Counted from the stretch's first letter, positions 5,973-42,958 are shown. The stretch: 64,000 bases of DNA from Candidatus Brocadiia bacterium (GCA_046538485.1 JBKHIT010000020.1:1-64000), one strand, 5' to 3'. A program made the numbers and translations. Notes: generated by a model from the letters alone, not told the origin.

Positions 5973-8186
5973 ATGATCCGTGTCAGCAAAATTCTCGCTT
6001 CCATCATCACCACACTCCTTCTGGCAATCCCCTTTCCATGGAGCTGTTCCGCTATGGCAGCAGAAACCGGCAGACGAATTGTGCCCGAAAATGACCAGTG
6101 GCAATCTCTTACCTCTGTCGAAGAGCTGTGCGAATCGCATCCCGAATGCATCGCACTGCTGATGAACAACCTCGATCTCGAGCAGGCGGAGCTCAGCGCC
6201 GTCGCTAAAGCCTGGCAGCAAAAAGATGGCCCCGCGGCCTGCAGAGCGCTGATCAAGTACTACCGAAACCCCGAAGTGCAGTCCTGGTTGAGACCGGACG
6301 ACACAAAGAACGCCCCGGAAAAAATCATCGAGCGGGCCGACAAAATACGAAGACGCCGGATCGACCTGCGCGGTGGTCCCAGCACCATCCCCGCCACCCA
6401 CGGCGCGTGGGATTGGAACCACGCCGGACCTCGCAACTACAGGGAATGGGCCTTCGCACTCAACCGCCACCCGTTCTTCCGCTGGCTGCTAAAAGCTTAC
6501 CGGTCCACAGGTGACGAAAAGTACGCCGCCGCTTTCGATCGGATCCTGCGCGACTGGATACTTCACGTGCCTTGCCCCGGGGAAGAACACCATTACACAT
6601 ACACCTGGCGAGTCCTGGAAGCCGGCCTCCGGATGCGATCGTGGGTGCCAGCTTTCTATGCGTTTCAGGACAGCGACTCTTTCACGCCGGCCGCTCGAAT
6701 CCTCATGCTCAGTTCTTTCGTGGAGCACGGCTACTACATCCGGCAACACCACTGGGATCACCACAACCATGCCCTGATGGAACTGGACGGACTCAATCTG
6801 CTGGCGCTGGCGTTTCCGGAACTCCAAAAGTCCACCGAGTGGCACCGCCATGCCATCAAACAGATGGTCGAAGAGATGGACCATCAGGTCTACCCGGACG
6901 GCGCGCACGATGAACTCTCAAGCGGGTACCATTGGGTCTCGCTCTCGAGTTTCGAACGGCTCGCCGAGACCTGTCGTCGGGCGGACGTGAAACTGCGGAA
7001 GGAATACAGACAGGGTCTCATCGACATGTACGATTACTGGACGTGGCTGGTGCGACCGGACGGGACGCTTCCGATGAACAATCGCTCGGACCGGTCCGAC
7101 GCGACCCGACGGGTTCTCAAAGCCGATTCACACTACAACCGCCCCGATTGGACTTATGTCGTCACAAACGGGGAAAAAGGCGAAAAACCCGAGGGGCTCC
7201 CTTCGCGGTTCATGCCATGGGCCGGACAGCTTATCTCGCGCAGCGACTGGGACGAAAACGCCCACTGGAGTTTCTTCGATGTCGGTCCGGCCGGACACGG
7301 CTGGGTCCACGCCGATAAACTCCACCTGTCGGTCCACGCATTCGGACGCGATTTCCTCGTCGATGCGGGGCGTTTCTGGTATGAGCGCGATAAATGGAGC
7401 CGATTCGCCGGCCATTCCCGCGCCCATAACGTAATTCTCGTCGATGGGAAAGGACAGGAACTCGGTCCCCGTCGGGCTGAAAAACCACATAGTCTCCACA
7501 GCGTCACGTCATCCTTCGATTTCGCCATGGGTTCAGTCGATCATTTTGAAGATCTTGAAGGCGACGTTGAGCACACACGATGCCTGGTGTATCTGCGTGG
7601 AACAGGTTGGCTTGTCGTGGATCACATCCAGACGGATCGCGCCCGCGATCTTTCCCCTCTCTGGCATTTTAATCCCGACTGCGAGGTCGAGACCGACGGA
7701 GCAGACATCGTGACCGCCGACCCCGGAAATCCGAATCTGCGCGTGACACCGGTCGGTCCGGTTGACTGGGACGTTGAATTCATCCGGGGACAGGAAGAGC
7801 CGCAGGTTCAGGGCTGGTATTGTGAACAGACCCCCGACTGGGAACCGAACACGGTGGCCCGTTTTCAGGGTCGCATCGAAAACAGTGCCAGTTTTGCCTG
7901 GGTGCTGACACCCGACGATGCCGCACCGGCCGCCCCGGAGATTGAATGGCTCAAATCTCCCGAAACTGCGGCCAGAGTCAGGGTACAGTGGCCCGGCGGG
8001 CCCGAATATACTTTCACAATTGTCATGAACGGCTCCGCCTTCCCCGTTGAGCTCACCGATGGCCGTCGGCTCGCCGCCCGGATGCTGCTCGAACAACCCG
8101 GTGCAAAATCGCGGGTCGCCTGCGGCCGTCTGGAAAATGCTCAGGGCGCGATCCTGGCCTCCGACGCACCTGAGAAACGCGAATGA
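5973..8186 (+). CDS. secreted heparinase II/III-like polysaccharide lyase
   Basis: 737 aa; signal peptide; LNRH, NHALME, DGAHDELSSGYH, HADKLH, LVDAG, HSRAHNVILVDG motifs. Confidence 0.85.
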   Translation: MIRVSKILASIITTLLLAIPFPWSCSAMAAETGRRIVPENDQWQSLTSVEELCESHPECIALLMNNLDLEQAELSAVAKAWQQKDGPAACRALIKYYRNPEVQSWLRPDDTKNAPEKIIERADKIRRRRIDLRGGPSTIPATHGAWDWNHAGPRNYREWAFALNRHPFFRWLLKAYRSTGDEKYAAAFDRILRDWILHVPCPGEEHHYTYTWRVLEAGLRMRSWVPAFYAFQDSDSFTPAARILMLSSFVEHGYYIRQHHWDHHNHALMELDGLNLLALAFPELQKSTEWHRHAIKQMVEEMDHQVYPDGAHDELSSGYHWVSLSSFERLAETCRRADVKLRKEYRQGLIDMYDYWTWLVRPDGTLPMNNRSDRSDATRRVLKADSHYNRPDWTYVVTNGEKGEKPEGLPSRFMPWAGQLISRSDWDENAHWSFFDVGPAGHGWVHADKLHLSVHAFGRDFLVDAGRFWYERDKWSRFAGHSRAHNVILVDGKGQELGPRRAEKPHSLHSVTSSFDFAMGSVDHFEDLEGDVEHTRCLVYLRGTGWLVVDHIQTDRARDLSPLWHFNPDCEVETDGADIVTADPGNPNLRVTPVGPVDWDVEFIRGQEEPQVQGWYCEQTPDWEPNTVARFQGRIENSASFAWVLTPDDAAPAAPEIEWLKSPETAARVRVQWPGGPEYTFTIVMNGSAFPVELTDGRRLAARMLLEQPGAKSRVACGRLENAQGAILASDAPEKRE

Positions 8187-8600
8187 GTGGGAGGGACTGA
8201 AGAACCAGCGGGTTGCCCCCGGCCTTTGGCCTGCCTTCGGCAACCCTAAACCGGTGCTTACTCCGGATCAGGCAAAGTGGTGCAAAAACCAGTCCGTCGC
8301 TTCGTAGCGGTTGAACTGTCCTGGTCCCTTAATGAAAGTCTCTTTGCTGTGGGTTTCGGCGCGGCCATCGGCGAAAGTTTGATCGACTTTGGTTTCCTGT
8401 GCAGGAGACCAGGTACAGGTAGGCGCTCTTCCGCGCGAACTCGAGCGCGTTCTGAACTCCAGTCCGCTCGAGATCCGGTTCCTTGTTGGCCCAACGGCGA
8501 GATTGCCGCGGCGGCTACGCCGGCTCGCAATGTGACGTTTCAAACAGCTAACCTGGGACCGAGAAGAAATGCTTCCCCCCGGCACCGACAAAAATTGGCC

Positions 8601-8631
8601 TTGACAAACTGCCCCCTCGCGAGGGTACACT
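8601..8631 (+). promoter_or_regulatory. sigma70-like promoter with palindrome in the spacer
   Basis: TTGACA (8601) and TACACT (8626), spacer 19 nt (long); spacer contains the perfect palindrome CCCTCGCGAGGG (8614-8625). Confidence 0.4.
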
Positions 8632-9630: not shown

Positions 9631-12600
9631 ATGAAGAGAACGATTCTCCTGACCCTGTCGTTTCTTGTGCCGGCGACATTCTTTTTTGGCCCGGTCCAAA
9701 CCGTCGGCTTGCCTGGTGAAGAGCTGGACGACGGTCTGGGCGATGTCGCGGCGGAACTGGAAGAGGAACTCGGGGACAGTTGGTGGAACAAGAACTGGAA
9801 GTTCCGTCGCAAGGTCTGGATTGAAGACCCACGCACAAAGGTTATGGGCAAAAAAATCCGTCTGGCCCGGCCCGATCCTCTGCTTCTCTTTAACACGCGG
9901 CCCTGCGCCAGCCGGCTCGCGGACCTCCGGGCGCTTTCGCCACTCGGTAAACAAATAGAATGCGGGGTCGATAATTTCGGTCAGGACGACGGCACCTCGG
10001 CCATCTGGGTCAAACTGTCGGCGCACAAAAGAAAAAGCACACCGCTGATCTACCTCTACTACGCCAATTCGAAAATCAAGCCGCCCCCTGCGGAAACAGA
10101 TCCGCCCGAAAAGATTCCAGGCCGACCGGGCGACGTGAGACTCGGACCGGAAGAAACGGCCCCGGGATACACGCATCGCACTCCCAAAATGGGACGTTTT
10201 TACCGGAATCTCGTGGTGGTCGAGGCCGAACAGTGCCGCAGTTCTTACGGTAAACCCACATTCACCTACGGCGATCGGCCCCCGCAGATGCTGTGGCGAA
10301 TCGGCGATAGGGGAAAAATCCAGTTTCCAAATTATATCAGCGCCGGAGCCTACCTGGCCTCCACCTGTCCCTGGCGCCCTCATGAATTGAAAGAACCCAT
10401 CCGCGCCCGGACAACCACAGATCTCCCGGCGGGCGGGAAATGGCACGTGCATGTGCGCTACAAAACCTCGCGACCCAACCATCCGCACCGGCGGCGACGC
10501 CATCGTTTCGTGCCGTTTGAACTGCGATTAAATGACAAAAAATATCGCTGCGGAGTCAAACAAAAAGGCGGAGCCCGCTTCCGATGGGATAGCTTCGAAA
10601 CGGAACTCGAAGCCGGTAAAACGGAAATCGGATTCCGTCTGACCGGTATGTCGGGACCGGATTGCGTGCTTTTTACAAAAGATGAAGAATACCTGCCCGA
10701 TCGACGCGACGTAAACGGACCTGTCTGGATGCGGTTCAAGGTGCTGAGCGAAAAGACAAAACCGTTTTACATCAACGTCTTTTGCGTCATCCAGCCCTGG
10801 TCCACACATGGGCCCCAGGGCAAAAGCGCGGGGCTGGTTTTCCGTGATAGAGTCATTCCGGGTGGCCAAGGCGCACGACCCCGCGAGCGGGACCCCGAAA
10901 CGTTGCTTCAGCCCGGCGAGTGGAGCCCCTGGGTCCGGACTCTTCACTCAAGCATGCCGACCTGGTGGACGCACGTCTCGTTTCTTCCCGGCGATAAACC
11001 ACCTATCGGCCGCTACGGGCAGACGGACGTTGAAGTGACTTTTCAATTCGCATCGAGACCCCACCACGACAGGGTTTTCCGGCATGGGACCGAACGCACC
11101 GGCAAAAAACGCGGCACAAAGGGCCTGCACGTGCTGATGCCGCGTCGTCTCGACCTGAACTCGATGCTCGATAGAACCCTTACCTTTACCCAGTGGGCGC
11201 GCCAGCGCTACCAGAGGGCGCAGGAACTTATCGGGGGAAAAACTGAGGGGCCGGAGAAGATAATGGTCACGACAATGGCCACGGCCCAGAGCGCCGAAGC
11301 CACACGCTACGTGCTCAAGACGTGCAGCGCGCTCGGCTTCAACGGTATCGGGATAAGATGTCCTCTCGAACGGGAAGAGTTCGCACGAATCGCCGGCGAG
11401 CACGGTTACCGCTGGACACAGTCCCACCACTGGGCACCGAAAATGGACCTTGCCTCACTCCCACTGGAACCTCCCGAACAGCGCAGCTGCACCGAAGTGC
11501 TGCGTTCCGCCATCGAAGAGGCTGCCGCCAAAACGTATGTGCCGGAAGCAAGTCGCTGGCACGTCCCCGGTCTGCGTCCCCGCCTCATCATCATGGGCGA
11601 TGAAATTGGACCCGCCACCTCAGCAGCGTACATCAACCTGGTACCGTTGCTCAAAGGTGCGTTTCACGAATATCTCCGGCGACATAGTCTCACGCCCGAT
11701 TTCTTCGGCAAGAAAAACTGGGGCGAAGTTGAGGCGATCGGATATCAGGAGATAAGCCGGATTTCGCGAACGGGAGAAAACCTCCTGCGGATCCAGGCGG
11801 CTCTGCGCGAAGAGGCTGGCGAAAGCACAAAATATGAATTTAAGCTGCCCATTCCCGCCCGCGAAGAACCTCCGGAAGGCGTGGCTACGAAGGTCCAGGA
11901 AACAGAAGACCTGCCGGGCCTCGAGGAAGACGGAAATGACGAAGAGGAATCAGCGGCACCCGAAGAGCGTGTTAAACGCGCTTCACTGGAAGAAAAACGC
12001 CTCTACCACTGGACGCAACGTTTTCGATCCTTCTACACCTCCGTTTTCTACGGCATCGCCCACCGGGAAATCCAGCGGGTGGCTGAAGAGGAAATGGATC
12101 TGCCCTTCAAACCCCTGTGCAGCCCGAACTTCCAGGCCAGCCCCACGATGACGGGCCAGATGTGGGACGGCGCGCTGAATCTTTTCGAATGGGCCCGCAA
12201 CGACACGACAAATCTCCTCTTCCATGAGGATTGGATCAACGGACCGTACCGGGTGGCCTTCGGACAACGTCTGCTCCACGCGGCCGCACGTAAGGAAGGT
12301 CAGCTGAACGGCCACCTGATCGTCGCCGATCGCGGGTTCCCTCAACGGTTTATGATGGGTCTGGCCGGCGGATCACGCGTTTTCCTTTCGTATTTGTACG
12401 GTCCGCGACGCGTCATAGGCCCTCCCTGGGCGGAAGATGAACCCACAGTCCGCGCCTGGGGCCGACTCCTCTCGTGGACCGGCCGGCTGGAAGACCAGAT
12501 ATTGAGTGCCGGGATGCGCCCGGCCGATGCCGCATTGCTGGTCGCAAACACTTCCGAAATCAACACCCGTTATCTTCGGGCGTCCATCCGACCCGGTCGG

Positions 12601-13452
12601 CCACTCAGCGCACGGCATGACATGTTCGCCGCCCTGATGGATGCCCACGTGCCCGTGGAAATCGTGGGCGAGGAGGAAATTCTTGACGACGACGCTCTCA
12701 AACGCTACCGCGTGCTCTACGTCTCCGACCCACACGTTCGTCGTGAAGTCCAGCAGAAGATCGTTTCCTGGGTCAGGGACGGCGGGGTTCTCTGGGCTTC
12801 CCACGCGGGTCTCGCCCGTCGGGAGTACGACGTGCCTTCCAATCTGCTCGATCCCGTTTTTGGTCTTGCGGATCGAGGTGATATTGTCGAAATCAAAGAA
12901 GAACCATCCTGGAACGAGACAATTGATATCGGCGGCCATAAAGTGCTGGGCAAGTCCCAAATTAAGGCCCCGAATATCCATCCAAACTGGGAATTGGACG
13001 GCGCGGAAGTCTTCGGCCGTTTTCAAGATGGATCCCCCGCGTTCATACACAATCGTTTTGGCAAAGGGCATGCGTTCCTGTTCGGCAACGCCCCGCGGGC
13101 GTGCACCGACGCCTACGGCTACAAGGTCGAGGTGGATGAAGCCAGGACCGCCGGCAGGAAATTACTTTTGGTGGCCGCCCAGACCGCCGGTGTCCGTCCC
13201 CATCTGCAATTCCCGAAGTCTCACGTGCTCTGGTCGGTCCATGACGGGAGACGCCACACGGTGGCCTACCTGGCGAACTGCCGCGGTGAAAAGATCGAGG
13301 ATATGCCCTTTGAGGTATTCCTTCCGCGCGAACCAGCTTCAGCAGTGGAAGGCAGCGGCAAGAAACTCAGTTTCAAGTGGCTGGAGAATCGGGTCAAACT
13401 ACAGATAGATCTGCCGGAAGGCGATGGCAAGATAATCGTCCTTGAGTACTGA
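9631..13452 (+). CDS. large secreted protein: DUF2341-like N-terminus, putative GH TIM barrel, GH42-type trimerisation domain
   Basis: 1273 aa; signal peptide; WWNKNWKFRRK...IWVKL...IYLYY (DUF2341-like); LKRYRVLYV...WVRDGG...NRFGKGHA (trimerisation-domain pattern). Confidence 0.7.
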   Translation: MKRTILLTLSFLVPATFFFGPVQTVGLPGEELDDGLGDVAAELEEELGDSWWNKNWKFRRKVWIEDPRTKVMGKKIRLARPDPLLLFNTRPCASRLADLRALSPLGKQIECGVDNFGQDDGTSAIWVKLSAHKRKSTPLIYLYYANSKIKPPPAETDPPEKIPGRPGDVRLGPEETAPGYTHRTPKMGRFYRNLVVVEAEQCRSSYGKPTFTYGDRPPQMLWRIGDRGKIQFPNYISAGAYLASTCPWRPHELKEPIRARTTTDLPAGGKWHVHVRYKTSRPNHPHRRRRHRFVPFELRLNDKKYRCGVKQKGGARFRWDSFETELEAGKTEIGFRLTGMSGPDCVLFTKDEEYLPDRRDVNGPVWMRFKVLSEKTKPFYINVFCVIQPWSTHGPQGKSAGLVFRDRVIPGGQGARPRERDPETLLQPGEWSPWVRTLHSSMPTWWTHVSFLPGDKPPIGRYGQTDVEVTFQFASRPHHDRVFRHGTERTGKKRGTKGLHVLMPRRLDLNSMLDRTLTFTQWARQRYQRAQELIGGKTEGPEKIMVTTMATAQSAEATRYVLKTCSALGFNGIGIRCPLEREEFARIAGEHGYRWTQSHHWAPKMDLASLPLEPPEQRSCTEVLRSAIEEAAAKTYVPEASRWHVPGLRPRLIIMGDEIGPATSAAYINLVPLLKGAFHEYLRRHSLTPDFFGKKNWGEVEAIGYQEISRISRTGENLLRIQAALREEAGESTKYEFKLPIPAREEPPEGVATKVQETEDLPGLEEDGNDEEESAAPEERVKRASLEEKRLYHWTQRFRSFYTSVFYGIAHREIQRVAEEEMDLPFKPLCSPNFQASPTMTGQMWDGALNLFEWARNDTTNLLFHEDWINGPYRVAFGQRLLHAAARKEGQLNGHLIVADRGFPQRFMMGLAGGSRVFLSYLYGPRRVIGPPWAEDEPTVRAWGRLLSWTGRLEDQILSAGMRPADAALLVANTSEINTRYLRASIRPGRPLSARHDMFAALMDAHVPVEIVGEEEILDDDALKRYRVLYVSDPHVRREVQQKIVSWVRDGGVLWASHAGLARREYDVPSNLLDPVFGLADRGDIVEIKEEPSWNETIDIGGHKVLGKSQIKAPNIHPNWELDGAEVFGRFQDGSPAFIHNRFGKGHAFLFGNAPRACTDAYGYKVEVDEARTAGRKLLLVAAQTAGVRPHLQFPKSHVLWSVHDGRRHTVAYLANCRGEKIEDMPFEVFLPREPASAVEGSGKKLSFKWLENRVKLQIDLPEGDGKIIVLEY

Positions 13453-14654: not shown

Positions 14655-14664
14655 TTGGTTTTCC

Positions 14665-14912: not shown

Positions 14913-14959
14913 ACTGTGTCACATGTCACCCAAGCCAAAATATAGCTTTCAAAACGACA

Positions 14960-15716
14960 TTACGGCTCAGACGCATAGTATTGCCCGGTTGTAGAAGCCA
15001 TATTATCGCCCCATCGGGTCTGCCGCCACTCGACGTGAGCATCCAACATGCCGTAGTTGCCCCCCTCAGGTTCCAGGTTCATAGCCACCCCGGTGATGAT
15101 TATTGACCGATACGTACCACGGATTGAATCCATAACGACTCGATCCCGCCGGCCGTAGGGCATCCCACCATACGATACGCTCGGCAATATTCTTCACGTC
15201 CGATAACCTTTGCACCGGCGAGTGGCCCACCTGAGAGGGACCGGGGCGGATCCTCGCTCCCCCCACGAGATAACCGTAACTGGTGAGAGACGCGTTATTA
15301 CTCCAGTATGACGTATTCCCCGTGCACACACAGTTCAGGTGAACGTATCCGGCACCATGAGCTCGCCAAAGAGAGTGCCGGGATACATCTCGTCCCGATG
15401 GGCACAGCCAGAGATCAACCGTCCCGAGATCATATTGCCGCGCCAGGTAACAACGCCTCTGATTATTGAAGCAATAACGACCATAATACCACTGCGGCGG
15501 GTTACCGTAGTAGCATGCGCCTGTCGGCAAAGCATCCCCGGAATCGCCTGCGTAATGATAACAGGCCAACAAAAACTGGCGTATGTTCGAGCGACAGACC
15601 GTCCGGCGTGCAGACTCACGTGCCCGCTCCAGAGCGGGCATCAGCATCGCCGCCAGAATCGCAATAATCGCGATAACGACGAGCAATTCGATAAGCGTGA
15701 ATGCTTTCTTCCACAT
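14960..15716 (-). pseudogene. DUF1559-like prepilin protein (copy 2), frameshifted near the 3' end
   Basis: [12 protein letters not shown]... frame stops at 15066 after [12 protein letters not shown]; the conserved tail GGNYGMLDAHVEW lies in another frame ending at 14960; 7-bp tandem duplication at 15067-15080. Confidence 0.85.
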
Positions 15717-24126: not shown

Positions 24127-24275
24127 GTTTTCCTCCCATTTCCAACTGCAAACGAACACCAGAGTCATAATACTTTCTGCACACCAATTCCGCAAGGCTG
24201 GACTCCGGGGACGCAATGCGGGTATTGAATACCCCCGACTGGGTAACCATGGCTCTCAATCTCTGGCCGTTCTCC

Positions 24276-32400: not shown

Positions 32401-32575
32401 CTTTGCCCGTGGCCTCCTGCAACTCCTCGTCCAAAAGATCCCCGAATGGATCTTCCTGGCAGATAGCGCTACCGGCCGACAGGGATAAACACAGCAGGAC
32501 GGTCAGAAATATCCTCCGGGCGTGAGAGCACGTTTCCACGCGCGCAGAAAGAATATTGGATATGCAATTCCGCAT
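26480..32575 (-). CDS. giant secreted multidomain protein (putative GH barrel, trimerisation domain, Ig/MG-like domain, PQQ/WD40 beta-propeller)
   Basis: 2031 aa; signal-like segment ending AIC-Q; AAFRRRGGKI; ENDPAGTYRVVATEL; repeated FSPDG/FSPDS and GKTLW/GEQLW propeller blades; AAGGAG RBS. Confidence 0.7.
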   Translation of the reverse strand: MRNCISNILSARVETCSHARRIFLTVLLCLSLSAGSAICQEDPFGDLLDEELQEATGKGDYEFVLVGPDGESIEGDRFLRSIPGQVSAREFPRVFTLAGKKLFTAGGGIEQGPDVGDDAVKIYCGENEHKAPHAHYQASCSADLPPGNYAIQPFGIEFRINGKASTRHPATTVGGSKLKIHTVPVTFAARVKGTKRLVPLRGLTLRRKGTNLLHKLVTDRQGRHRSAAYVPLTMYLPRGFKYESSLGNFEITATGKVQPLTGKERFEKGTFYKTVQPAESQKPKPVQGMWVVSRTGRRVFQRGETVLLNVIYGKMEETGKLNVLAQSGGQKITVGTLKLTPSEKNDARRILLDTGRLRPAQYTIKLDHPECRGLRIEIVENPKTTPLFLHSTACCNKADFTLDPAGLEVLQNAGIESVTQLGHHGVLSRPHRGREKRDVADGAPTELSLGLGEDERMLENMLRHGVGTVDYQNRRYGFSFEGLAFHHSYQPSVDRMVRRTQIFAQEFEDFPAQLGLTYTWFPRLGGYAEGTVIVTDPYFDDRMRALRKKIRERTGLTPLSRKEIRSLQQRTLQDEKLVRRWREYRRAEQRIGWRESFEHYNRELWQVDSDFIATTHENAGHDGGKLLRHLGGAHDAMSFESYTDFGDWPMSSGFTVDWCHGNITGKPVWLTVEGWQPEPAQCADAIYALSRGAEGIGIPMRGPAARRDNARRSAICHFLQQYGSIATNFQPDRTVAVLFNELQSRVLYHTHALHSHLMRLGYAPVVVSEKTIEESGVPDGVKAILIPNLRLPFSAECEKELAAFRRRGGKIAVVGKDTLLLEGIGCLRADVSLKQLWDIGGFRARLDFWKEFKKVRSALEKTMRAFGLKPRNGAAPEKALIIPVDSGGLNYVAVISSPLTAPDVRFEPVEDVKVEVNQAAHVVDLVTGQEIPVRDEAVTVDLVRTPAALLALLPEEIDEIVLEHPHGARAGEEIEFAAKNPFPGDKKPVRIPIRYEVTDSRGEQRAIFYRLSGKPLRYRSAENDPAGTYRVVATELIGGLKAEAKVKLTPTENVAAAKPGDDVFLPHPQRVPEFINGEGKIRVVVENTQTDYWPEARKIVEAFEAIGREAEIQRVRASMYDTLPLRWLPRSEDKELLEEIDAGEVVGYRGHMEPYIDEKHRRHIVERGGWRDIRPNYILRTHVVMFSGGRISESLSPVSRYMRTRNTPGSGQALIEVTMSPFWAGCDALTVVARDAEGARKGVSRLLDEIKSKRKDLPQAQPSDLATARADGQTKGTEPVQFVRPLAEFVPPSRCKELLTSRDGWTAAVVEDRVVAVSPDGKTTAFERPGGDVGLNIVNGGKFFCGSKEILSRHAAWHFPTAWGARIRTVDVKNGTMNGFEPPQKFAGQDNVIHAWEYAFAPSPDGKRYFAAEMGGGFFLYDFAARRYRIFRDRRDTSLFSERVRAPLCATGVGFSPDSRYLAYSSATFPVGHGNMGQAWDIPYASALQMVDLKEGKTLWRVDAEVLDDYSIAAQGKLRVTDSGRRVFLFNFNHDVLVFGAKGQKLEQIQLRGRELTTRDRLPDPVALEVSRDESTVLFAGRKTVLVTDADGNEKYRLDVPDLSDATLGWSGDRFCICDVDGIVQCYSTGGEQLWELETDGADGRVGRVADGFVVGEGAGDLLFVNPEGDKTRRVNSRELPPKDLSSGKMTFSGPERYRPPQTIDILKKYGSKRISSWTAEADGEKIYGQTFHPVDHTVKLQVEKRGPFVVRLRYRHEGTTKVTLRQGDKARTFVLDLPTWEYREVCLPALLAEPLEVNVKPGGKLKIALLDVYTLRFPGVNSAYVQPPSTDMGKEGGFVGPGAEGNLDRDLTVLDVDDSSSVADGVRGKMKEVNIYSNNIDPDRVQGPYFTAAGNPLHTFDGKHFLEGRPEPWTAGRVDRFITKMGSRIVIDLSYRAEPKICVTYGRTLTQSKVMRGIAVIGRLKNQFKQGRRHAAEWTTRGRCALAGVYPNDQFFRVFELNERPIEELAVFVFGGQGNPHGLSEIELYD

Positions 32576-33540: not shown

Positions 33541-36500
33541 TTATTTTCGCGGTGGTGGATACAGATAACGCGCCTGAACGCGACGGCGTTCGAGTGTAAA
33601 GCTTTCCCAGTTCAGGCTGAAGAACGGTTGCTTCAGTTTCGAGTTCCGGAATTCAACCACGACGGGATACCGTTTGCCCGCCTCCAGAACAATGGGGGCA
33701 CTATCCACTTCATACGCTTTGGGCCCCGGAAACTTGCCCACACCGCGGAGTGTGTACGGACCGAAAAGCTTTCCTTTTGCAATTTTCTTGCCCCGGATCC
33801 TCCACGCATCGATGATATCTTTTCCCGCCACCTTCATGCGCACGCCGGACCCTTGATGCGGTAGATAGACACTGAAGACGTAACGTTCACTCAGCGGCGC
33901 TTCCAGTTGCCCTACCCACCGAACTGAAAATCCTTCCGAGGGAGCCCAGCCGCCGGCAACTCGGCCGACTTTTGTCTCCTCGTTCCACCAGTAATACGGA
34001 GCATCCCCCGGCCGATGATGAGCATAAGGCTTATATTGATCGAACCAAAGCTGACGGTCGATCCGGGTTACTGGACCTTGCTTGAATTCCTTTCCGCCGG
34101 CTCCCTGCATGGCTGTTTTCCCTTTCTCGTCCTCCCCGCTCGCCGGATTCATCATATCATCAAGTGTCTTCTTTTTCGGTTCCTGCAGATTGGGATTGTC
34201 AAAATACGTCGCTCTAAGCCCCTTGCCTTTCTGCTTCGCTCCGGGGATGCGTTTCTTCAGTTCAACAGTTCCCGTCTGCCGGTTCATCTCGTCCCAGCCG
34301 TTCACACGGTAGACCTGGAAACAGTTGCGTCCTGGCGTATACCAGATAATCTCCCCCTCATCGGTCTCCATCACCGCACCACCGGTTCCGTTATCGGAAG
34401 CGATGATCGAAGGTTCGACAACCCAGCCGTTCTTTCCGCGATCAGGATCGGCGCCACGTTCCCCCCCGAAAAACGTATACGCCGCTTTCGGCAGACCATC
34501 AGCCGCCCGTCTGTCTAAGAACGTCCCAGCATACAGCCCGTCGGTGGTCCAGACTTTGGCCGGCGTTCCCCAGCGTTCGGCTGTGACAACGGTATCTTTC
34601 AAGACGCTCAGGATGGCTTTCGGTTCGTGGAAATGTCCCGGTGGAGCCCCCTTGCCTCGCCAGACATAATTTATTGCATGCTGAGCCGCGGTCCATTCCA
34701 GCGCTCCGTCTTTGCGCCATTTGTGGAGATTCACCGGGCCAATCCGGCCCGTCACCCACCAGCGTCCATGAGAATCTCCGGTGTAGCGGGCCAGCGCGTA
34801 GACATTACCCTCCTTGTCACTGTAAGCAGAAGGCGGACTGTGTCCCCCGCCGGAGGCCATCCCCACATCGAACAAAGCCTCCCCACCTTTGTGCATCTTC
34901 GAATACAGGGGAACGCCGTTCCGCCAGATCGGATCACCACTGTATGCCACGGTCTTTGAATTAACACCATATTCACGTCCCAACGCCTTCGAAATATCGT
35001 CGCTGGCCGGCACACCCCAGACACTCACGATGGTAAAACCATGCCCGATTCGTATTCGCCCCCCGATCCTCCCGCCATCGGAGCGATGGATGGGATCCGC
35101 GATCTCACTCTTTTGGACTTCTCCATCGTGATTCAGGTCGGACCAGAATCCTCTGCTTTTGCCAGCAAATTTTTTCAACCTTTCCGTCTGGTTCTTACCA
35201 CCCAGCGAGAGCGCAACGGCTCGTAAATGCCCATCGGTATGTTCAAAGACCTGGAACTGTCCGTCAGACAGCAGGTAGCGGGTGCCATCGTGATATCGCA
35301 CGTAAAACTGATGCGATACTTGGTGAGTCCAGGTCTTCGGGTCGGAAGGGTCCTCACCCCCGGTATACTCATAGGCCTCGAGAACATTCCAGGTTCCCCC
35401 GGCAAAATTCATCCGGGCCAGGACGATGCGTCCATAGTTGTTGTACCAGACAAGCGCAGGATCTCGGGGGTCGGGGGCCACTGAGGCGTAGAACTCAACG
35501 CCGCCGTACCATTCTTTCAAAACTCTTCCGTTCTTGCCGAAATGAGCCACCCGCCGCGGCACCCAGTCTTCGGCCACAAAAAACCCGCCTTCCCCGTCTG
35601 CAGTCAGATCGGTAACGTTGCGGAAATCCCGGGGATTATACTGTCCTCCTTTCCGCCCACCTTCCCGACCGTACCTCTGGAGCTGTTTCCCTTCGAGGTT
35701 GTAACGCTTGACCTGATTGCCCGGTTCTTTTTCGGCAATCAGCAGGTGGTCGTTCGCTATATCATAGGCGATTCGGAAAGGGCTTTTCAGGCCGGTCACG
35801 ACCGACTGTTTGGCCCCCCCATCTTCCACCCGAAATACCTGCGAATCGCACGCCACGTACACTGCCTCATCCGAATCGAGAGCAAGCCCGCGTGGCGAAT
35901 CAATCGTCAACCTTTTTGCAATAGAGCCGTCTTTCGGGTCGAGCCATCTGACTTCGTTTTGTCGGCTGTAACTGACGACAATTGTTGTGCCACGGGCGGC
36001 CATATCAACTTTGTGGCGGTTATAGATAAACTGGCGTTTTTCTTTAACTTTGGTTTTCTCGTGCAGGACGTCCCAGGATGCCACCTGGCGGCCCGTTTCC
36101 GGGTCGATGGTCTTAATTTTCCCATTTTGTTGAAGCAGGTAGAGCTTGTCTTTGCCGCCGACTCCCAGGGCGATAGCGCCCTGCCAGGGACCGTACCCAT
36201 GGTGGGCCCAGAACCGTTTTTTCCCATCCAGGGACTGTTTGATGAGGGCCGGAACGTTTTCGGCCGTCCCCGACGCCACATACATCGCGTCTCCATGGAC
36301 GGTCACGCCACGTGGCCCCGCGTGATTTCCGATCCAAAAATCGTACGGTTTGCTACCCGGATTGGTTCCCAGGGTGGCCAAATATTGCACGGTGAACCCG
36401 GGAATCCGAAGCAGTTTCCAGATGTATTTTCCCGGTTCAACGGCACGTCCGAGGCTGCCGAGCCCATCCCAACCGAGCCTGTGGTCTCCGGGGGGCTGGT

Positions 36501-36795
36501 ATTTGCCGCGCAGAAGCGTCCGGACGAGGCGTCCATCCTTATCATAAACTCCCACTGAAATCTGACCGGCTTTTTGCAATGTGTAATGCACTCTGACCGC
36601 AGCGTTTTCGGGCGGAACCCCTTGATCAATCGCCGCTCTGCCCGTTGCCCCCGAGACAGGTTTATCTGCGCGAGGTTCGTCGGGCAGCGGGACAGACCTG
36701 GGTCGAGCTAAACCATCTGTTGTCAGCCCACCGGCCGCGGTTAATGCGACAAGTAAAAGCTGAACCGCAAAAAAAAGCTTGTTCAGTGTTTCCAT
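33541..36795 (-). CDS. secreted FlgD-Ig / NHL-type beta-propeller / PA14 protein
   Basis: 1084 aa; VYDKDGRLVRTL...WDG...PGKY (FlgD_ig); PRGLALD and PFRIAYD repeats; GLRATYFDN...FSVRW.GQLEAP.S.RY.F (PA14). Confidence 0.8.
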   Translation of the reverse strand: METLNKLFFAVQLLLVALTAAGGLTTDGLARPRSVPLPDEPRADKPVSGATGRAAIDQGVPPENAAVRVHYTLQKAGQISVGVYDKDGRLVRTLLRGKYQPPGDHRLGWDGLGSLGRAVEPGKYIWKLLRIPGFTVQYLATLGTNPGSKPYDFWIGNHAGPRGVTVHGDAMYVASGTAENVPALIKQSLDGKKRFWAHHGYGPWQGAIALGVGGKDKLYLLQQNGKIKTIDPETGRQVASWDVLHEKTKVKEKRQFIYNRHKVDMAARGTTIVVSYSRQNEVRWLDPKDGSIAKRLTIDSPRGLALDSDEAVYVACDSQVFRVEDGGAKQSVVTGLKSPFRIAYDIANDHLLIAEKEPGNQVKRYNLEGKQLQRYGREGGRKGGQYNPRDFRNVTDLTADGEGGFFVAEDWVPRRVAHFGKNGRVLKEWYGGVEFYASVAPDPRDPALVWYNNYGRIVLARMNFAGGTWNVLEAYEYTGGEDPSDPKTWTHQVSHQFYVRYHDGTRYLLSDGQFQVFEHTDGHLRAVALSLGGKNQTERLKKFAGKSRGFWSDLNHDGEVQKSEIADPIHRSDGGRIGGRIRIGHGFTIVSVWGVPASDDISKALGREYGVNSKTVAYSGDPIWRNGVPLYSKMHKGGEALFDVGMASGGGHSPPSAYSDKEGNVYALARYTGDSHGRWWVTGRIGPVNLHKWRKDGALEWTAAQHAINYVWRGKGAPPGHFHEPKAILSVLKDTVVTAERWGTPAKVWTTDGLYAGTFLDRRAADGLPKAAYTFFGGERGADPDRGKNGWVVEPSIIASDNGTGGAVMETDEGEIIWYTPGRNCFQVYRVNGWDEMNRQTGTVELKKRIPGAKQKGKGLRATYFDNPNLQEPKKKTLDDMMNPASGEDEKGKTAMQGAGGKEFKQGPVTRIDRQLWFDQYKPYAHHRPGDAPYYWWNEETKVGRVAGGWAPSEGFSVRWVGQLEAPLSERYVFSVYLPHQGSGVRMKVAGKDIIDAWRIRGKKIAKGKLFGPYTLRGVGKFPGPKAYEVDSAPIVLEAGKRYPVVVEFRNSKLKQPFFSLNWESFTLERRRVQARYLYPPPRK

Positions 36796-36827: not shown

Positions 36828-37756
36828 TTATTGGACCGGTTCCGTGCCGTCATGGAAGAGGTTCAGGAACTCGCCACCTCCGCCGCCCGTACTGATTACG
36901 GTTCCGTCGACGAGTTCGTAGCTCCGACCTGCGTAGTAACTGAGGAGATGCGGTGGTTTTTTGTGCCTGTGTACATGCCCGTCGAAATACAGGTAATTTA
37001 CAGTGTAATTTTGATGAAACCAGGTTACGTCACCTATGGCATCTCCGTACTGGGGTTTGACCGAGGAGAGAATATTCTCATGCACGGACCATGCCGCGTA
37101 ATAGTTATTCGTAGCTGTAAGGAACACTTCCTGCCCAGGGCTCCCGATTCTGTTGAAGGACCACAGGGGAGGCGTCCCATCCCACACGTTAACATTGCGG
37201 TAATACGCGGTTACATTGGCAGGCACCCCGTAGGAGGAGTGGCGGTACCACCAGTTCCCATATTTCTCTACCGTACCCGTGGCATCAGCGGGGCAGAAAA
37301 GCTGTCGCACAGCCGCCCTCCACACTCTCGCGTTGCCGTTTGCATTCCGGTCATTACTGTTCATCGCAAACTCTCCCCGGCAAGACAATGCCCCAGCGCA
37401 TCCCACCAGCATGTGTAACCATTCCATGAATTCCAACCTCCGGGCGGGCTATAGCAATCTGGTGTCTGATAGAGCGGAAACAAAAAGGAGGATGAATCAC
37501 TAATGTACATCGCCTTCGCGTATCCGAGCTGTTTGAATCGGTTCGCACAGGTCACCGCTCTCGCCGCCTCCCGGGCACTCTGCAGAGCCAGCATCAACAT
37601 TGCCGCCAGGATGGCGATGATAGCTATCACAACCAGAAGCTCGATCAGAGTAAACGCTTTACTGATCAAAAGCTCAAGGTGATAACCCGTCCGCACTCGC
37701 GTGGACCGCTTTTTCTGGAGCAAAATGGCCTGTTCCCGCTTCTCTATCGTTTCCAT
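36828..37756 (-). pseudogene. DUF1559-like prepilin protein (copy 4), frameshifted mid-gene
   Basis: ATG 37756 after [13 protein letters not shown] frame stops at 37361; another frame continues EFAMN...LFCPAD...FHQNYTVNYLYFDGHV to 36828; shift near 37371-37378. Confidence 0.85.
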
Positions 37757-38753: not shown

Positions 38754-41700
38754 CTATTCACCCGGTGCGACGATTTCACTCTTCGCAGGCAAAATCCAAC
38801 GGGTCAACGGATCGAAACCGATCGCCGCCTCGTACACCGTCCCGACGGCTTCCTCCATACCTTCCGCATCGTGGGCAATCAGGGTGATGGATTCCTGGCC
38901 GCGCCCTATCCCACCCAGTTGCCAGGCCATCATTCCGCGGCCGCGTCCCGGAATCTCACCGGCTTCAGGTTTGTACGGCAGGTACCCTTCTTTATCGAGA
39001 AAAGCGATCAACGGGTTATTGTCGGGATTACCCAGTAGAATGGCGGGCCCGCGGAGGGCAAAACCGACCAGTTTGATGGGGTTCTTCTGGCCGGGCTTGA
39101 TAGTTCCGCTGCCAGCATAATGCAACCCGCACCACGTTTTGGCCTCTTCTTCGGTCAGTTTTCGGGGTTTATTAACCTCGGATGCGGCAACGATACGGGC
39201 TTCCACACCCCATGGTTCAAGCGTCTTCGCAAGACGCATCGCCGCGCTCGAGATCCCGTCGCCTTCTCCTTTGACAACGGTTATGTCCTTGTGAACACGG
39301 AAGAACCGGTAGATGTGCTCCCGGTCCCGGCCGAAATAGATCGCTCGCCTCTCCATTCCGCACATGGCCCCGCAGCGGTCGGGCGGATTCCAGGCAAACT
39401 CCGCCGTATCCTGCGTCTCAGCCAGGAGATCCGTTACTATCACTTTCCATTTCCCGGCCGGTTCGTTCACACCGAATTGAAGCTGGCTGCTGAAGAGACC
39501 GTTCTCCGTGGCCCGGAAAAGATCGTAGCGGACTTCTCCATTGGGACCGATCACCCGGACCCGGAGCGGTATGGAGCCATTGATCACCTCCCCCTCGTCG
39601 TCGAGGACGGTGGCGGCGACATTGAGGACAGAGGGGTCGCGTCTCCGTGTGTAGTGACTTTCGAGAACCGGGGCGTGCGCTTTCACGCTTCCGATGGGGC
39701 GAGCCGTCCGGGCGAATACACGCATACCACCCGGCTGGAACTCGAATTTCCCCGCTGCCACATTTCCTTTGTGCTTCAAATCCTTCATCTCGCCCCCGTA
39801 CACTGCATCGTAGAAGGGACCGCGGCGAGGCAAGACGATGCGTGCAGTAGTGGCGACCGGATTGTTCTTTCCGCCTTCCTCAAAATCGTACGCGGCATTC
39901 ACGCCAAAATAGTATTCAACGTCGCCGTGGGCCTGGTAACCCGCAACGATCTGATCCTCGCTCGATTCGAAAGCGGGCCTGGTTCCGGCTTCTTCGAGGT
40001 GCGGTTTGAGCGCACGGACGATCCTACGGGCCGACTTGATGAGATTGCCGGTGGTGTTAAGTTTCTCCAGCGCCGCCTTCTTCTTTTTCTTGTCCTTTAT
40101 TTTGAATGCCGCCTCCAGTTCGTCGGCCTTTATGTGACGGGGCACGATGTCCACCTTTTTCGCCCCTTCAATATCGACGGAACAATCGCCCGTCATCACC
40201 ACGCTCCCGCCGTCATCAATAAATCGCTCAAGCGAGGCGTTCACCGCCGGGTCCAGATGGTTGACCGCAGTGAGCACAACCGCCCTGTGGTGCCGGGCCA
40301 GAGTCCCATCCAGTATGTCCTCTTCAACAACCGTCGTCATCGGGGTCTGCATGATCTTGCTGGCCAGATAGACGAGTCCCCGTTTCATACCTTTGTCCTG
40401 AGCGTGAGCATACATGAATTTCATGTCCCGTGCCTGGGTCTCGATATTGTCGGACATGGAATAGAGGAAGGCCAGGGGCTGGCGCGTTTTAGGCATGTGG
40501 TTAAAGACGGGGCCGAGACGGGCCATGGTTTTGTTGGTTTCTTCAACCGCCGGCGCAGCGGGAGGGTTTTTGGCAAGGTTTATGGGCGGCGGCGTCATCA
40601 AACCTTCAATACCGGCGATAAACGAGAAGTATTGTTCCAGGCGAAAACACGCGGGCGTGGTGTTGGCCCACCAGCACGGCAGATACCAGCACGGCCGGTC
40701 CATATCGCGGGCCAGCGACATCTCGAGATAGAACGAAGGGTTGAACGTCAGCATCATATAGCTGTCATATCCCCCGTGCCCGCTCGCGACGGGCAGGCTG
40801 CTGGTCACGTTGAAGTAATATCCGTCTGTGAAAGCGCTCCATCCGTACTGGCTCTGGGTCGCGCTGAGGAAATCGCGGCGGACCCAATCCACACCGAATC
40901 TTGCGTGTTTCCACGCGGCATCCATGAAAGAAAGTTTCCACCGGGCCCACTTTTTCCAGCGTTCGACATCCCGCGGGTCGTCCAGATCGACTTCGTGATA
41001 CGGGATCGGATCGTTTCCCCACGCGCCGCGGTACGCGTTTTTTTGTGGAGGAACGCCATGCGCCGTCATCTCCCCGGTTTCGGGATGTTTATGCCATGTC
41101 AGCCCCGGTTCGTCGTAAAAATGCACACCCATGCAGGTCGGGGCCGTGCGATCCTGCATGGCCCGGTGCGTCACGCGCCGCGTTCCGCCGCGTACGACAT
41201 ACGGGTCCGACCAGTCACATTCCATTCTCAGATCCATCTGGTGTCCGCCGCTCATGGTGCAGACTTTCATGAAATCGACACCTGCCCGAACGCTGTATTC
41301 GGCGCTGGGACGCTGGGCGTAAACCATTGTGAAACCGTAGCCGTCGCGCCCGAGTTTCAGATATTGCTTCCCTTTCACGCCGGACCACGCGATCAACTTG
41401 TAGCTGGAATATCTTTCGTGACTGAAAACATCAATCCCGACCTCAGCCGTCGCACCGTCGACCGACACTGAGACATCATAGTGTCCCGGGCGGAGCAGCC
41501 ATCCGTTGAGGCGTACGTGTTCGGTTGTGCGGGCCTGACCATCGACGGCCGCCACACTCTCAACAGGAAATGTAAAACTTATCTGGCCACTCCCCTCGTC
41601 GCGAAGCCGGACCATCAGTTCACCTTCTGGCAGATTTTCCCTGGAGGTCCGCACGACGGCAAGATCAATCCTTTCATTGGTCTGGTAAGCTTTCCGATTC

Positions 41701-41801
41701 TCGGGAAGGACAATCTGAACTTCTGCGGCCCGTGCCGGAGGCGAGATTATGAGAGCGAAAATGACAAGCAAAAGTCCTGCACCGATTCGTTTCCGGTTCA
41801 T
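38754..41801 (-). CDS. large secreted putative glycoside hydrolase with trimerisation and Ig/MG-like domains
   Basis: 1015 aa; signal peptide ending ARA-A; GVHFYDEPG; LERFIDDGG; VNEPAGKWKVIVTDLL; AAGGAG upstream. Confidence 0.7.
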   Translation of the reverse strand: MNRKRIGAGLLLVIFALIISPPARAAEVQIVLPENRKAYQTNERIDLAVVRTSRENLPEGELMVRLRDEGSGQISFTFPVESVAAVDGQARTTEHVRLNGWLLRPGHYDVSVSVDGATAEVGIDVFSHERYSSYKLIAWSGVKGKQYLKLGRDGYGFTMVYAQRPSAEYSVRAGVDFMKVCTMSGGHQMDLRMECDWSDPYVVRGGTRRVTHRAMQDRTAPTCMGVHFYDEPGLTWHKHPETGEMTAHGVPPQKNAYRGAWGNDPIPYHEVDLDDPRDVERWKKWARWKLSFMDAAWKHARFGVDWVRRDFLSATQSQYGWSAFTDGYYFNVTSSLPVASGHGGYDSYMMLTFNPSFYLEMSLARDMDRPCWYLPCWWANTTPACFRLEQYFSFIAGIEGLMTPPPINLAKNPPAAPAVEETNKTMARLGPVFNHMPKTRQPLAFLYSMSDNIETQARDMKFMYAHAQDKGMKRGLVYLASKIMQTPMTTVVEEDILDGTLARHHRAVVLTAVNHLDPAVNASLERFIDDGGSVVMTGDCSVDIEGAKKVDIVPRHIKADELEAAFKIKDKKKKKAALEKLNTTGNLIKSARRIVRALKPHLEEAGTRPAFESSEDQIVAGYQAHGDVEYYFGVNAAYDFEEGGKNNPVATTARIVLPRRGPFYDAVYGGEMKDLKHKGNVAAGKFEFQPGGMRVFARTARPIGSVKAHAPVLESHYTRRRDPSVLNVAATVLDDEGEVINGSIPLRVRVIGPNGEVRYDLFRATENGLFSSQLQFGVNEPAGKWKVIVTDLLAETQDTAEFAWNPPDRCGAMCGMERRAIYFGRDREHIYRFFRVHKDITVVKGEGDGISSAAMRLAKTLEPWGVEARIVAASEVNKPRKLTEEEAKTWCGLHYAGSGTIKPGQKNPIKLVGFALRGPAILLGNPDNNPLIAFLDKEGYLPYKPEAGEIPGRGRGMMAWQLGGIGRGQESITLIAHDAEGMEEAVGTVYEAAIGFDPLTRWILPAKSEIVAPGE

Positions 41802-41887
41802 CTATTCACTCCTTTGCGTAACAGGTTCTGTCAGCTTTCTTCGGTATATTTCGTTTTGTATTCCGCGGTCCTGCGTCGTGAGAAAGG

Positions 41888-42958
41888 TCAAGATTTCGGC
41901 GGGGCAACAGTGGACCCCCGTGCCACGAGTTCGGGTTTCACATAAATCCCGTCCTCTGCAAATTCTCCCTCCCCGCGATGTGCAGTTCGTAGCCCTTCGG
42001 CCATCGACTCCGCGACGGCTTTTGGATTAAGAGAAACTGACGTCAGGCTGATGCCATGTCCTTCCGCGAGACTAGTATTGTTCATTCCGATCACGGACAC
42101 TTCTTCTGGCACACTTATACCTGCTTTCAGCAACTCATTTACGGCTCCGAGCGCCGCGTCATCGGTCATCGTCCAGTACGCCGTGGCCCCCCGTTCCCGA
42201 ATGAACTCGCTTTCCTTCTGGCCCAGGGAACCGTAGAAAATATGGCATTCCGCTCCGGCGACTTCAGCGAGGTGTCGGAGGGTCAGGGCGCGTCGTTCGG
42301 CACTGGAACCTTCGCCTGGAAACCGTCCGCCGTGGGCGGCAATGCGGCGATGCCCGAGTTCCAGCAGGTGGTCAACCACACAGCGCGACGCGTGAACCGG
42401 ATCACAAAGAACCCGGAAAGCCGGCGGCGCGATGACGTTGGGCTCATATTGGAAAAAGACCCGGGCCGGAAACTTCATGGCGTAGCGCTTGAAGGCAGCC
42501 TTTTCATCGTCGCCATACCCCTCTGGGGCAATACAGACGAGGGCGTCGGGACGTTCGCCGCCGTTCTCCACAGCCTCTTCCAATCGCCTTTCCACCGAGC
42601 GGTTACTGAAACTGGCAGCATAGATATCGACGTCAAAACCCGCCTCGTAGAGGGCGTGGGAGACCGGGAACTGAAAAATCGTGTTGGAATCCGCGTCACG
42701 CGAAAGCAACATCACAACATTCCCGAGATAAGGTTTGCGCAGCACGGTGGTACCTCTCCCGCGCACGCTCTTGAGAAGCCCTTCATCGGCGAGAGTTCTA
42801 ACCGCGCGCCGCACCGCGTGCACACTGCACTCGGCGTCACGGGCTATGGTTTCTGCCGACGGCAAGAGCGAATCAACATCAAAGTCACCTCGCTGGATGC
42901 TGTCGGTAATAAAATCCGTCGCTTGCTCAACCTGCGGTTTAGAAGTCGTCGTATCCAT
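41888..42958 (-). CDS. GntR-HTH / LacI-type sugar-binding transcriptional regulator (AraR-like architecture)
   Basis: LLPSAETIA...SVHAVRRAV..L..EGLL....GRGT (GntR); HLLELGHRRI, GISVPEEVSVIG.NN, LTSV (LacI effector domain). Confidence 0.9.
   Translation of the reverse strand: MDTTTSKPQVEQATDFITDSIQRGDFDVDSLLPSAETIARDAECSVHAVRRAVRTLADEGLLKSVRGRGTTVLRKPYLGNVVMLLSRDADSNTIFQFPVSHALYEAGFDVDIYAASFSNRSVERRLEEAVENGGERPDALVCIAPEGYGDDEKAAFKRYAMKFPARVFFQYEPNVIAPPAFRVLCDPVHASRCVVDHLLELGHRRIAAHGGRFPGEGSSAERRALTLRHLAEVAGAECHIFYGSLGQKESEFIRERGATAYWTMTDDAALGAVNELLKAGISVPEEVSVIGMNNTSLAEGHGISLTSVSLNPKAVAESMAEGLRTAHRGEGEFAEDGIYVKPELVARGSTVAPPKS

Follow-up and report, generated by a model that had tools for sequence, protein, structure and literature searches.

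A 64,000-nucleotide stretch of the genome of a Candidatus Brocadiia bacterium (GCA_046538485.1, JBKHIT010000020.1:1-64000), referred to below as the window, was analyzed for the gene island at positions 5973-42958, where genes for pilin-like proteins lie among genes for large exported proteins. The host genome is a metagenome-assembled Planctomycetota genome of 5.19 Mb in 143 contigs and is 88% complete. Sequencing runs that contain DNA of the window belong to one microbial-mat study, and for one of the window's proteins the nearest homologue with a named source, at 88% identity, is labeled "Planctomycetes bacterium". The island is made up of two adjacent loci, a plus-strand unit and a 28-kb minus-strand run, and our analysis indicated that these are very probably glycan-degradation loci representing one instance of a cassette that recurs about 26 times in the genome, in which a sugar sensor is followed by one or more pilin-like genes and these by giant exported enzymes.

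Gene content of the island

The plus-strand unit contains, in this order, a heparinase-type lyase, the pilin-like gene pil1 and a 1273-amino-acid (aa) protein related to glycoside hydrolase family 42 (GH42). The minus-strand run starts with a sensor of the GntR helix-turn-helix/LacI type, followed by a GH42-like enzyme, pil4, pil4b, a propeller/PA14 protein and pil3, and after pil3 come the gene for a 2031-aa giant and some accessory genes, then those for a second lyase and a DUF4838 enzyme, and last pil2 (Table 1). This array is co-directional, and 11 of its 13 genes lie 23-155 bases from the upstream neighbor, the two longer gaps being 731 and 269 bases. The first-pass annotation had described five prepilin genes interleaved with seven exported proteins of 737-2031 aa and a GntR-LacI regulator at the head of the minus-strand run, and the six-frame motif scan, the sizes of the open reading frames (ORFs) and the domain matches of the regulator agreed with it on all of these points. 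Family scans of the 19 island ORFs with Pfam and NCBIfam found no transporter, TonB-receptor or SusD family, which is in line with its statement that the island has no TonB receptor, SusD, or ATP-binding cassette (ABC) or major facilitator superfamily transporter. Two stretches, 13452-15066 (1.6 kb) and 18328-19060 (0.7 kb), contained no convincing gene, Rfam family or tRNA, and Rfam and tRNA scans of the whole window were also without a match.

Table 1 Features of the island, in order of position
Feature	Position	Strand	Basis
Heparinase II/III-type polysaccharide lyase, 737 aa, exported	5973..8186	+	Hepar_II_III_N 1.6e-56, Hepar_II_III_C 2.3e-20
pil1, prepilin-type gene, 267 aa	8718..9521	+	Motif scan; N_methyl 5.5e-6; 110 bases upstream of 1273-aa gene
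GH42-related protein, 1273 aa, exported	9631..13452	+	C-terminal part; profile against GH42 Gan42B 5dfa, 2.7e-5
pil2, prepilin-type gene, cut short	14960..15716	-	ORF 15066-15716; C-terminal motif out of frame to 14960
DUF4838 protein, 780 aa, exported, GH2_N-like sugar-binding domain	15986..18328	-	DUF4838 3e-40, Glyco_hydro_2_N 8.1e-6
Probable lipoprotein, 1135 aa, predicted polysaccharide-lyase fold	19060..22467	-	Model, predicted local distance difference test (pLDDT) 92.3; Foldseek
Metallophosphoesterase, 358 aa	22511..23587	-	Metallophos 1.1e-6; no signal-like N-terminus
Small ORF, possibly lipoprotein from internal start	23611..24216	-	No family match
682-aa protein	24276..26324	-	No family match, no signal-like N-terminus
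2031-aa exported giant	26480..32575	-	Weak beta-propeller (PQQ-like) matches only
pil3, prepilin-type gene, 262 aa	32715..33503	-	Pfam, NCBIfam, motif scan; 139 bases upstream of 2031-aa gene
1084-aa exported protein, FlgD-Ig, propeller-like and PA14 domains	33541..36795	-	Pfam; PDB PA14 6qdi, 2.1e-10
pil4b, frameshifted prepilin-type gene	36828..37756	-	N-part to 37361, C-part ORF 36828-37436; 32 bases upstream of 1084-aa gene
pil4, prepilin-type gene, 293 aa	37798..38679	-	Pfam, motif scan; head kept in 23 other proteins
1015-aa exported protein, predicted GH42-like fold	38754..41801	-	Model pLDDT 91.9; Foldseek
Sugar-sensor regulator, GntR winged helix and LacI-type periplasmic-binding-protein-like domain	41888..42958	-	GntR 1.8e-9, Peripla_BP_3 1.7e-24
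Promoter-like site upstream of regulator	42999..43026	-	10/12 consensus matches, extended -10; consensus match only

Exactly five prepilin N-termini of the form xFTLIELL were found in the window, all of them inside the island, and both Pfam N_methyl (PF07963) and NCBIfam TIGR02532 matched every one. The class III signal is present in the five copies, with Gly or Ala at -1, Phe at +1 and Glu at +5, and is followed by a hydrophobic helix. When four copies were aligned, the columns from F6 to R33 were invariant and the remainder could not be aligned. With 133 pilin-motif ORFs in 5.19 Mb, 0.95 would be expected per 37 kb by chance and the Poisson probability of at least five is 0.003, a value that overstates the case because the pilin family is clustered genome-wide. 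Copies 1, 3 and 4 had been reported directly 5' of giant genes, and so they are, at the distances given in Table 1, copy 4 being pil4b.

The reading frames of pil2 and pil4b are interrupted. In pil2 (15066-15110, minus strand), an early stop lies at a 7-base tandem duplication, GAACCTG GAACCTG, and if the second copy of GAACCTG were removed, the frame would continue through the GGNYGMLDAHVEW motif to 14960; the disruption is either recent or a variable site. Contigs from two additional runs of the microbial-mat study span the frameshift site of pil4b (37361-37436) with no gap, so the frameshift is probably real and not a slip of a single assembly. Contigs from public runs broke or branched at the conserved N-terminal coding stretch of the pilin genes (33415-33480, 37600-37655 and 38537-38611), and this stretch may act as an assembly repeat and give mis-joins in metagenome bins.

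The label DUF1559/H-X9-DG, which the five copies had been given, suits them only marginally. Four of the five match the beginning of PF07596, three of them above its cut-off of 23.3 bits (pil1 25.3, pil2 25.9 and pil4b 31.7) and pil3 below it at 20.5, and pil4 has no match to this family. The matches in the island cover only about positions 1-44 of 268 (2-39 in pil1), and TIGR04294, the 22-position H-X9-DG motif (19 bits), did not match the window copies at E <= 0.01. Genome-wide there are 71 matches to PF07596 and 15 to TIGR04294, none of the latter on the window contig. By eye, degenerate H-X9-DG-like strings were recognizable in pil3 and also in the tails of pil2 and pil4b that lie out of frame, and homologues of pil4 carry the source names H-X9-DG or PulG-type protein.

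All seven large proteins (737, 1273, 780, 1135, 2031, 1084 and 1015 aa) have a hydrophobic, signal-like N-terminus as judged by eye. The 737-aa lyase matched PF16889 (192.5 bits, N-terminal alpha toroid) and PF07940 (73.6 bits, beta sandwich), both above cut-off. Four of the large proteins had no noteworthy match in Pfam, NCBIfam or the PDB sequences; in the PDB searches, nothing matched the 1135-, 1015-, 682- and 1273-aa proteins, and the 2031-aa protein had only a weak PQQ-type match. Leads from the ESM Atlas (GH42 for the 1015-aa and heparinase for the 1135-aa protein) were then tested by folding with deep alignments. The model of the 1135-aa protein, an alpha toroid with a beta sandwich, had alginate lyase Dp0100 (6jp4, E 4e-17) as its best Foldseek match, and further matches were heparinase II, PL40 ulvan lyase, PL17, and PL8 chondroitin lyases; 10 of 55 other homologues of this protein carry DUF4962 (PF16332). 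The model of the 1015-aa protein matched the GH42 beta-galactosidase 5e9a (E 8.5e-16, template modeling score 0.56 on the target) and also GH164 and GH167. This protein has 622 relatives at E <= 0.001 and, despite the fold match, no Pfam GH42 match, and on the basis of the model we call it GH42-like and do not file it as a GH42 member. The family profile of the 1273-aa protein, which has 20 full-length homologues, matched residues 406-598 (the middle domain) of Gan42B, and hhalign aligned it with the 1015-aa family over about 285 columns (probability 95%, E 3.4e-8). The objection that the large proteins might hold no carbohydrate-active folds, which the first-pass annotation had raised against itself, does not stand, since Foldseek found lyase and GH42-like folds, and both orphan giants that were folded (2/2) gave glycan-active ones.

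Several island proteins have paralogues in the genome, 13 for the 780-aa DUF4838 protein, 15 for the 1084-aa protein (9/15 within two genes of a pilin gene) and two for the 682-aa protein, one of which adjoins a pilin gene. A gene cluster of carbohydrate-active enzymes (CAZymes), as defined in PMC11131199, needs one or more CAZymes and, no further than two genes away, a transcription factor, a transporter or a second CAZyme, and in this dbCAN sense the island is such a cluster, with the lyase, the DUF4838 protein and the lyase-fold and GH42-like-fold proteins plus the regulator. Because there are two lyases, the polymer targeted by the locus probably contains uronic acid.

The similarity of the island regulator to any named NCBIfam equivalog is weak, and as a single query it recovered only 2 of its 40 genome relatives at E <= 1e-10. 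We take its two-domain architecture to be that of an AraR-type chimera, with a GntR head and a LacI/GalR-type sugar-binding domain. Neither the promoter nor the terminator scan exceeded the shuffled background (6 against 9.8 and 22 against 22.0; 5 against 8.2 and 25 against 22.1).

Pilin-like genes behind sugar sensors in this and other genomes

For the genome-wide analysis, genes were called by a simple codon-score ORF picker with all 133 motif-bearing ORFs forced in. A profile made from the paralogues of the window regulator found 40 sugar-type regulators, and a pilin gene lay immediately after 21 of them and within two genes downstream of 26, against a background of 3.4%. When the 11 regulators used to build the profile were left out, a pilin gene still came immediately after 12/29 and within two genes of 15/29. 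Counted from the paralogues themselves, 10 of 11 were within two genes of a pilin gene, compared with 336 of 3374 for all genes. The next co-directional gene coded for at least 1000 aa after 22 of 127 pilin genes and after 117 of 3263 other genes (p = 4e-9).

Then the nearest same-strand non-pilin neighbors of the pilin genes (64 downstream and 62 upstream, one 63-aa gene being dropped) were scanned with Pfam at E <= 1e-5 and compared with a control set of 124 genes, taken from 20 randomly chosen stretches that were separated from every pilin gene by a distance of four genes or more. GntR/LacI-type sensors made up 16/62 upstream neighbors and 0/124 controls (p = 5e-9), and giants of at least 1000 aa with no Pfam family made up 18/126 neighbors and 0/124 controls (p = 4e-6), all p-values of this comparison being rough. 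The placement of DUF1559-type genes, whose possible randomness had been named as a weak point of the first-pass proposal, is therefore non-random; the effect is strong for sugar-type regulators and for giant exported proteins, and moderate for Pfam glycan-active domains. On contig C44, a pilin pair has a group II intron reverse transcriptase/maturase gene as its immediate downstream neighbor.

The same arrangement was also found in other genomes. Among 80 genomes from the same class, three stood out with 27, 24 and 17 matches to the regulator profile, and most had none. Five of the seven regulator loci outside the host genome at E <= 1e-50 had a pilin motif within 1.5 kb, and the best regulator homologues in four relatives also adjoin a pilin gene. 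A search by the pilin N-terminus alone gave 80 loci from named genomes, which span Sedimentisphaerales, Phycisphaerae, Pirellulales, Gemmataceae, Verrucomicrobiota, Kiritimatiellae and Lentisphaeria and also include genomes labeled Ratteibacteria, Omnitrophota and Hydrogenedentes. In these loci, 7 of the 49 same-strand genes lying upstream code for Peripla_BP_3 sensors. On the downstream side, 13 of 43 were glycan-related, with one full-length GH123 and with GH116, GH42, GH5, LamG, CBM9 and a pectate-lyase-like domain. The sensor/pilin/enzyme design is widespread and far from universal. Ahead of the pilin gene, the sensor retains the Peripla_BP_3 domain, its DNA-binding head being of the GntR, LacI or AraC type by lineage, which at the level of sequence means that the sensor slot is conserved and the regulator family is not.

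These results bear on the explanation that the pilin-like proteins are a general surface-structure or adhesion family with no working link to the enzymes, and that they came to lie beside sugar operons by duplication and insertion in a family with fast turnover. It would account for the copies that look truncated (about a fifth in the genome) or are disrupted (2/5 in the island), for the many copies that adjoin housekeeping genes and for specific pilin-enzyme pairs not being conserved, but not for a pilin gene directly after the sensor at many times the background frequency, in a position that recurs across families and phyla with three types of DNA-binding head on the sensor. Such a recurrent position is hard to obtain without selection for co-expression, and we consider this explanation very unlikely.

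Individual pairs of pilin and enzyme were not kept. Of 19 loci with a relative of the 1015-aa enzyme, drawn from 10 other genomes in the phylum, none had a pilin gene within 1.5 kb (0/19), and pil4-type heads on three contigs with readable flanks adjoined a 1015-aa relative in 0/3, both samples being small and distant. A fixed pilin-enzyme partnership was rejected on these counts. The first-pass description of the island as an analogue of a polysaccharide utilization locus (PUL) holds for a sugar-regulated glycan-degradation island without SusC/D, but the fixed pairing of pilin and partner enzyme that belonged to it is not maintained in other genomes.

Conserved stem, variable heads and a possible role in glycan capture

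Across the 114 paralogues of at least 150 aa, 24 stem positions were at least 92% identical with every synonymous codon in use, and the F, T, L and E of the signal, including Glu+5, were invariant in 114/114. An origin of these identical N-termini by gene conversion was rejected. Because the residues of the stem are constant while their synonymous codons are scrambled, the sequences indicate that the stem is under purifying selection at the protein level. The constraint goes beyond what cleavage and anchoring need and is read as a shared fit to one machine or fiber core. A GspG-like pilin encoded beside PilB-PilT-PilB-PilC has a closely similar stem, but the minor pilins of that cluster do not.

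The heads are very different from one another, with 74 of 116 being singletons at 50 bits. Among their residues, Trp is enriched 2.4-fold, Tyr 2.25-fold and Asn 1.9-fold, and His is enriched as well, a composition often met on surfaces that bind sugars. The heads are not degenerate sequence, since 23 proteins elsewhere share the pil4 head at 40-60% identity, and many Trp, Tyr and Cys residues are invariant among them; for the pil3 head, no similar paralogue was found in the genome.

The type IV pilus/type II secretion system (T2SS)-like machine that the first-pass annotation had expected outside the island is indeed encoded in the genome. There are 10 T2SSE ATPases above cut-off, 3 of them of the PilT family above its own cut-off, 12 T2SSF stretches, two prepilin peptidases (Peptidase_A24), three secretins and Tad-like sets, and a PilB-PilT-PilB-PilC-pilin cluster is present. 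The assembly ATPases score nearly equally as GspE and PilB, and the NCBIfam model for the "bindosome assembly system ATPase" gave only a weak score. At contig C109:325-3579, a protein of 1084 aa with a GspK-like pilin N-terminus closes this cluster and is possibly a minor pilin of giant size that sits at the fiber tip. Matches to Plug (PF07715) and SusD (PF07980) numbered 0 in the whole genome, which at 88% completeness means not found and not absent.

As a possible role, we tentatively propose that the pilins are induced by substrate, that their constant stem and variable, Trp/Tyr-rich heads allow them to join a shared fiber, and that they bind the glycan of their own locus. What the sequences show is the order of the genes, the folds, the constraint on the stem and an encoded machine, together with the statistics; induction, fiber assembly and binding are inferred from these and would proceed in four steps. 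An oligosaccharide of the target polymer would release the sensor, so that the run is transcribed. The enzymes, which by their N-termini are of the Sec or lipoprotein type, would be exported, and the pilin-like proteins would be handled through their class III signal. One of the two prepilin peptidases would trim the latter, the near-invariant stem of about 30 residues would admit any of the approximately 130 paralogues to the same fiber, and this fiber would be built around the GspG-like major subunit by the PilB/PilC/secretin machine. Finally, the variable heads rich in Trp, Tyr and Asn would bind the glycan of their own locus, which would be held at the cell surface, or reeled in by PilT retraction, for the exported lyases and hydrolases. 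Capture by pilins would in this way fill the role played in Bacteroidota by SusD-type binding proteins and TonB receptors. Gold-labeled dextran is reported to bind pili-like fibers of two planctomycetes (PMC5394234), and proteins of the pilin-like family are reported to be produced and to occur in membrane fractions (PMC8567305); both lend the proposal indirect support.

A wider form of the proposal would be that bacteria of the Planctomycetes-Verrucomicrobia-Chlamydiae (PVC) group without SusC/D and TonB receptors use one retractile, pilus-like fiber as a universal "fishing rod" with operon-specific glycan-binding pilin heads, in which case the DUF1559-type expansion would be their glycan-recognition repertoire and would also give the identity of the dextran-binding fibers. 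In this general form we hold it to be doubtful.

A number of points weigh against glycan capture. The Trp/Tyr enrichment is only suggestive of sugar binding, and the excess of glycan-related Pfam domains is modest, 26/126 pilin neighbors against 11/124 controls (p = 0.012), or 21 against 6 (p = 0.004) when sulfatases, which are common genome-wide, are excluded. For all the neighbor statistics, categories were assigned after the hits had been seen and contiguous control genes are not independent, which is what makes the p-values rough, and the gene caller is crude. Many pilin genes adjoin housekeeping genes, and the 15 ORFs flanking pil4-type heads on the three contigs gave no glycan-active family. 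Two of the five island pilin genes (pil2 and pil4b) are disrupted, and 29 of the 133 pilin ORFs are shorter than 200 aa from the motif, only 2 of these being at contig ends, so many copies may be dispensable; these short ORFs suggest that copies of the family arise and are lost quickly. The missing Plug and SusD matches carry the completeness limit given above. The dextran-binding fibers are reported to be 12 nm wide (PMC5394234).

The main rival to glycan capture is that the pilin-like proteins are export adaptors, that is, cargo-specific pseudopilins of a T2SS-like machine which recruit or push the giant enzymes of their locus across the outer membrane. In other diderm bacteria, glycan-degrading enzymes commonly leave the cell by type II secretion. 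Giant exported proteins are what pilin genes most often precede, and the major subunit near the machine is GspG-like with ATPases that score nearly equally as GspE and PilB. Within the genome, pilin pairs with similar heads also had homologous downstream genes more often than other pairs (3/13 against 57/3283, p = 0.0014), but this signal could be explained by duplication of whole cassettes. Against export adaptors stand the pairing counts above, 0/19 for the enzyme loci and 0/3 for the pil4-type heads, both from small and distant samples, and a locus has several different pilins and several enzymes without a one-to-one order. We regard export adaptors as unlikely.

Another alternative is that no filament is formed and that the prepilin signal only tethers a periplasmic or surface ligand-binding head to the inner membrane, from where oligosaccharides are passed to transporters or signaled. 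The sugar-binding proteins of the archaeal "bindosome" are a precedent for ligand binders with a prepilin signal, and the Pfam family name SBP_bac_10 is a solute-binding label. In Tuwongella, the family members detected were in detergent-soluble membrane fractions, as reported in PMC8567305. However, the 126 neighbors gave only one oligopeptide-type ABC ATPase and one GntR-SBP_bac_8 fusion, the 37-kb island is without a transporter, and the stem with its universal Glu+5 is conserved far beyond what cleavage and anchoring need, so anchored binders or sensors appear quite unlikely.

Relation to known systems and flanking genes

Compared with the DUF1559/H-X9-DG family (PF07596 and TIGR04294), the window copies are alike in the prepilin signal with a short conserved stretch and in the massive expansion (133 ORFs here), but they match only about the first 40 of 268 positions of PF07596 and TIGR04294 not at all. 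Published numbers of DUF1559-type genes are 74 in Rhodopirellula, 68 in Planctopirus and about 100 in Tuwongella. The SusC/SusD PULs of Bacteroidota likewise have a sugar-responsive regulator beside exported glycan-cleaving enzymes, in many loci with presumably one glycan each, whereas the island has no SusC-like TonB receptor, SusD or transporter and carries pilin-like genes in the accessory slot. Type IV pili with modular or minor pilins and T2SS pseudopili share the class III signal, Glu+5 and hydrophobic stem, and their assembly genes are in the genome; but known systems keep a few minor pilins beside the machine, and here more than 100 subunits are spread over distant substrate-specific operons. 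Archaeal bindosome-type proteins, which have a prepilin signal and are encoded with their ABC transporter, differ in that here a sugar ABC permease turned up neither in the island nor among the 126 neighbors of pilin genes. AraR-type regulators differ in number and position, with about 40 copies here, most of them leading pilin cassettes. The dextran-binding fibers at the crateriform structures of Planctopirus and Gemmata (PMC5394234) come from the same phylum and bind polysaccharide before uptake, but their link to the pilin-like family is only inferred by us.

The pilin-like family and its expansion are already known, as are CAZyme clusters without SusC/D. A survey of 2024 describes the CAZyme clusters of Planctomycetes and relatives as functionally uncharacterized, with about a third of cluster genes unassigned (PMC11131199). 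In the full-text literature searched, we found no paper that places the pilin-like family in sugar-regulated enzyme operons, although Supplementary Table 8 of PMC8567305 and Mahajan et al. 2020b may bear on flanking genes; what is new, in the sense of not found in print, is the position of pilin-like genes directly behind sugar sensors inside glycanase operons. The DUF1559-type family is among the largest paralogous families of Planctomycetes and relatives, and the cassette rule of sensor, pilin and giant enzyme gives it a testable role in the capture or handling of sugar polymers and links two questions, the function of DUF1559 and polysaccharide uptake without SusC/D. It points to the gene, the head domain and the glycan class to test, here uronic-acid polymers. 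CAZyme-cluster finders miss the recurrent accessory gene, the pilin, and many enzymes recognizable at the fold level.

Outside the island, the ORF at 3894-5060 has an unusual fusion of a chromate-transporter domain (7e-35) with a phosphotransferase system (PTS) EIIA-2 domain (3.8e-16), and it is followed by an ORF at 5076-5603. Just beyond the other end, positions 43305-48906 of the window encode a 646-aa Ser/Thr kinase, a 382-aa protein with an ARPP-1 domain (1.4e-67) and a 777-aa protein with VIT and VWA domains, which represent a possible conflict or signaling module.

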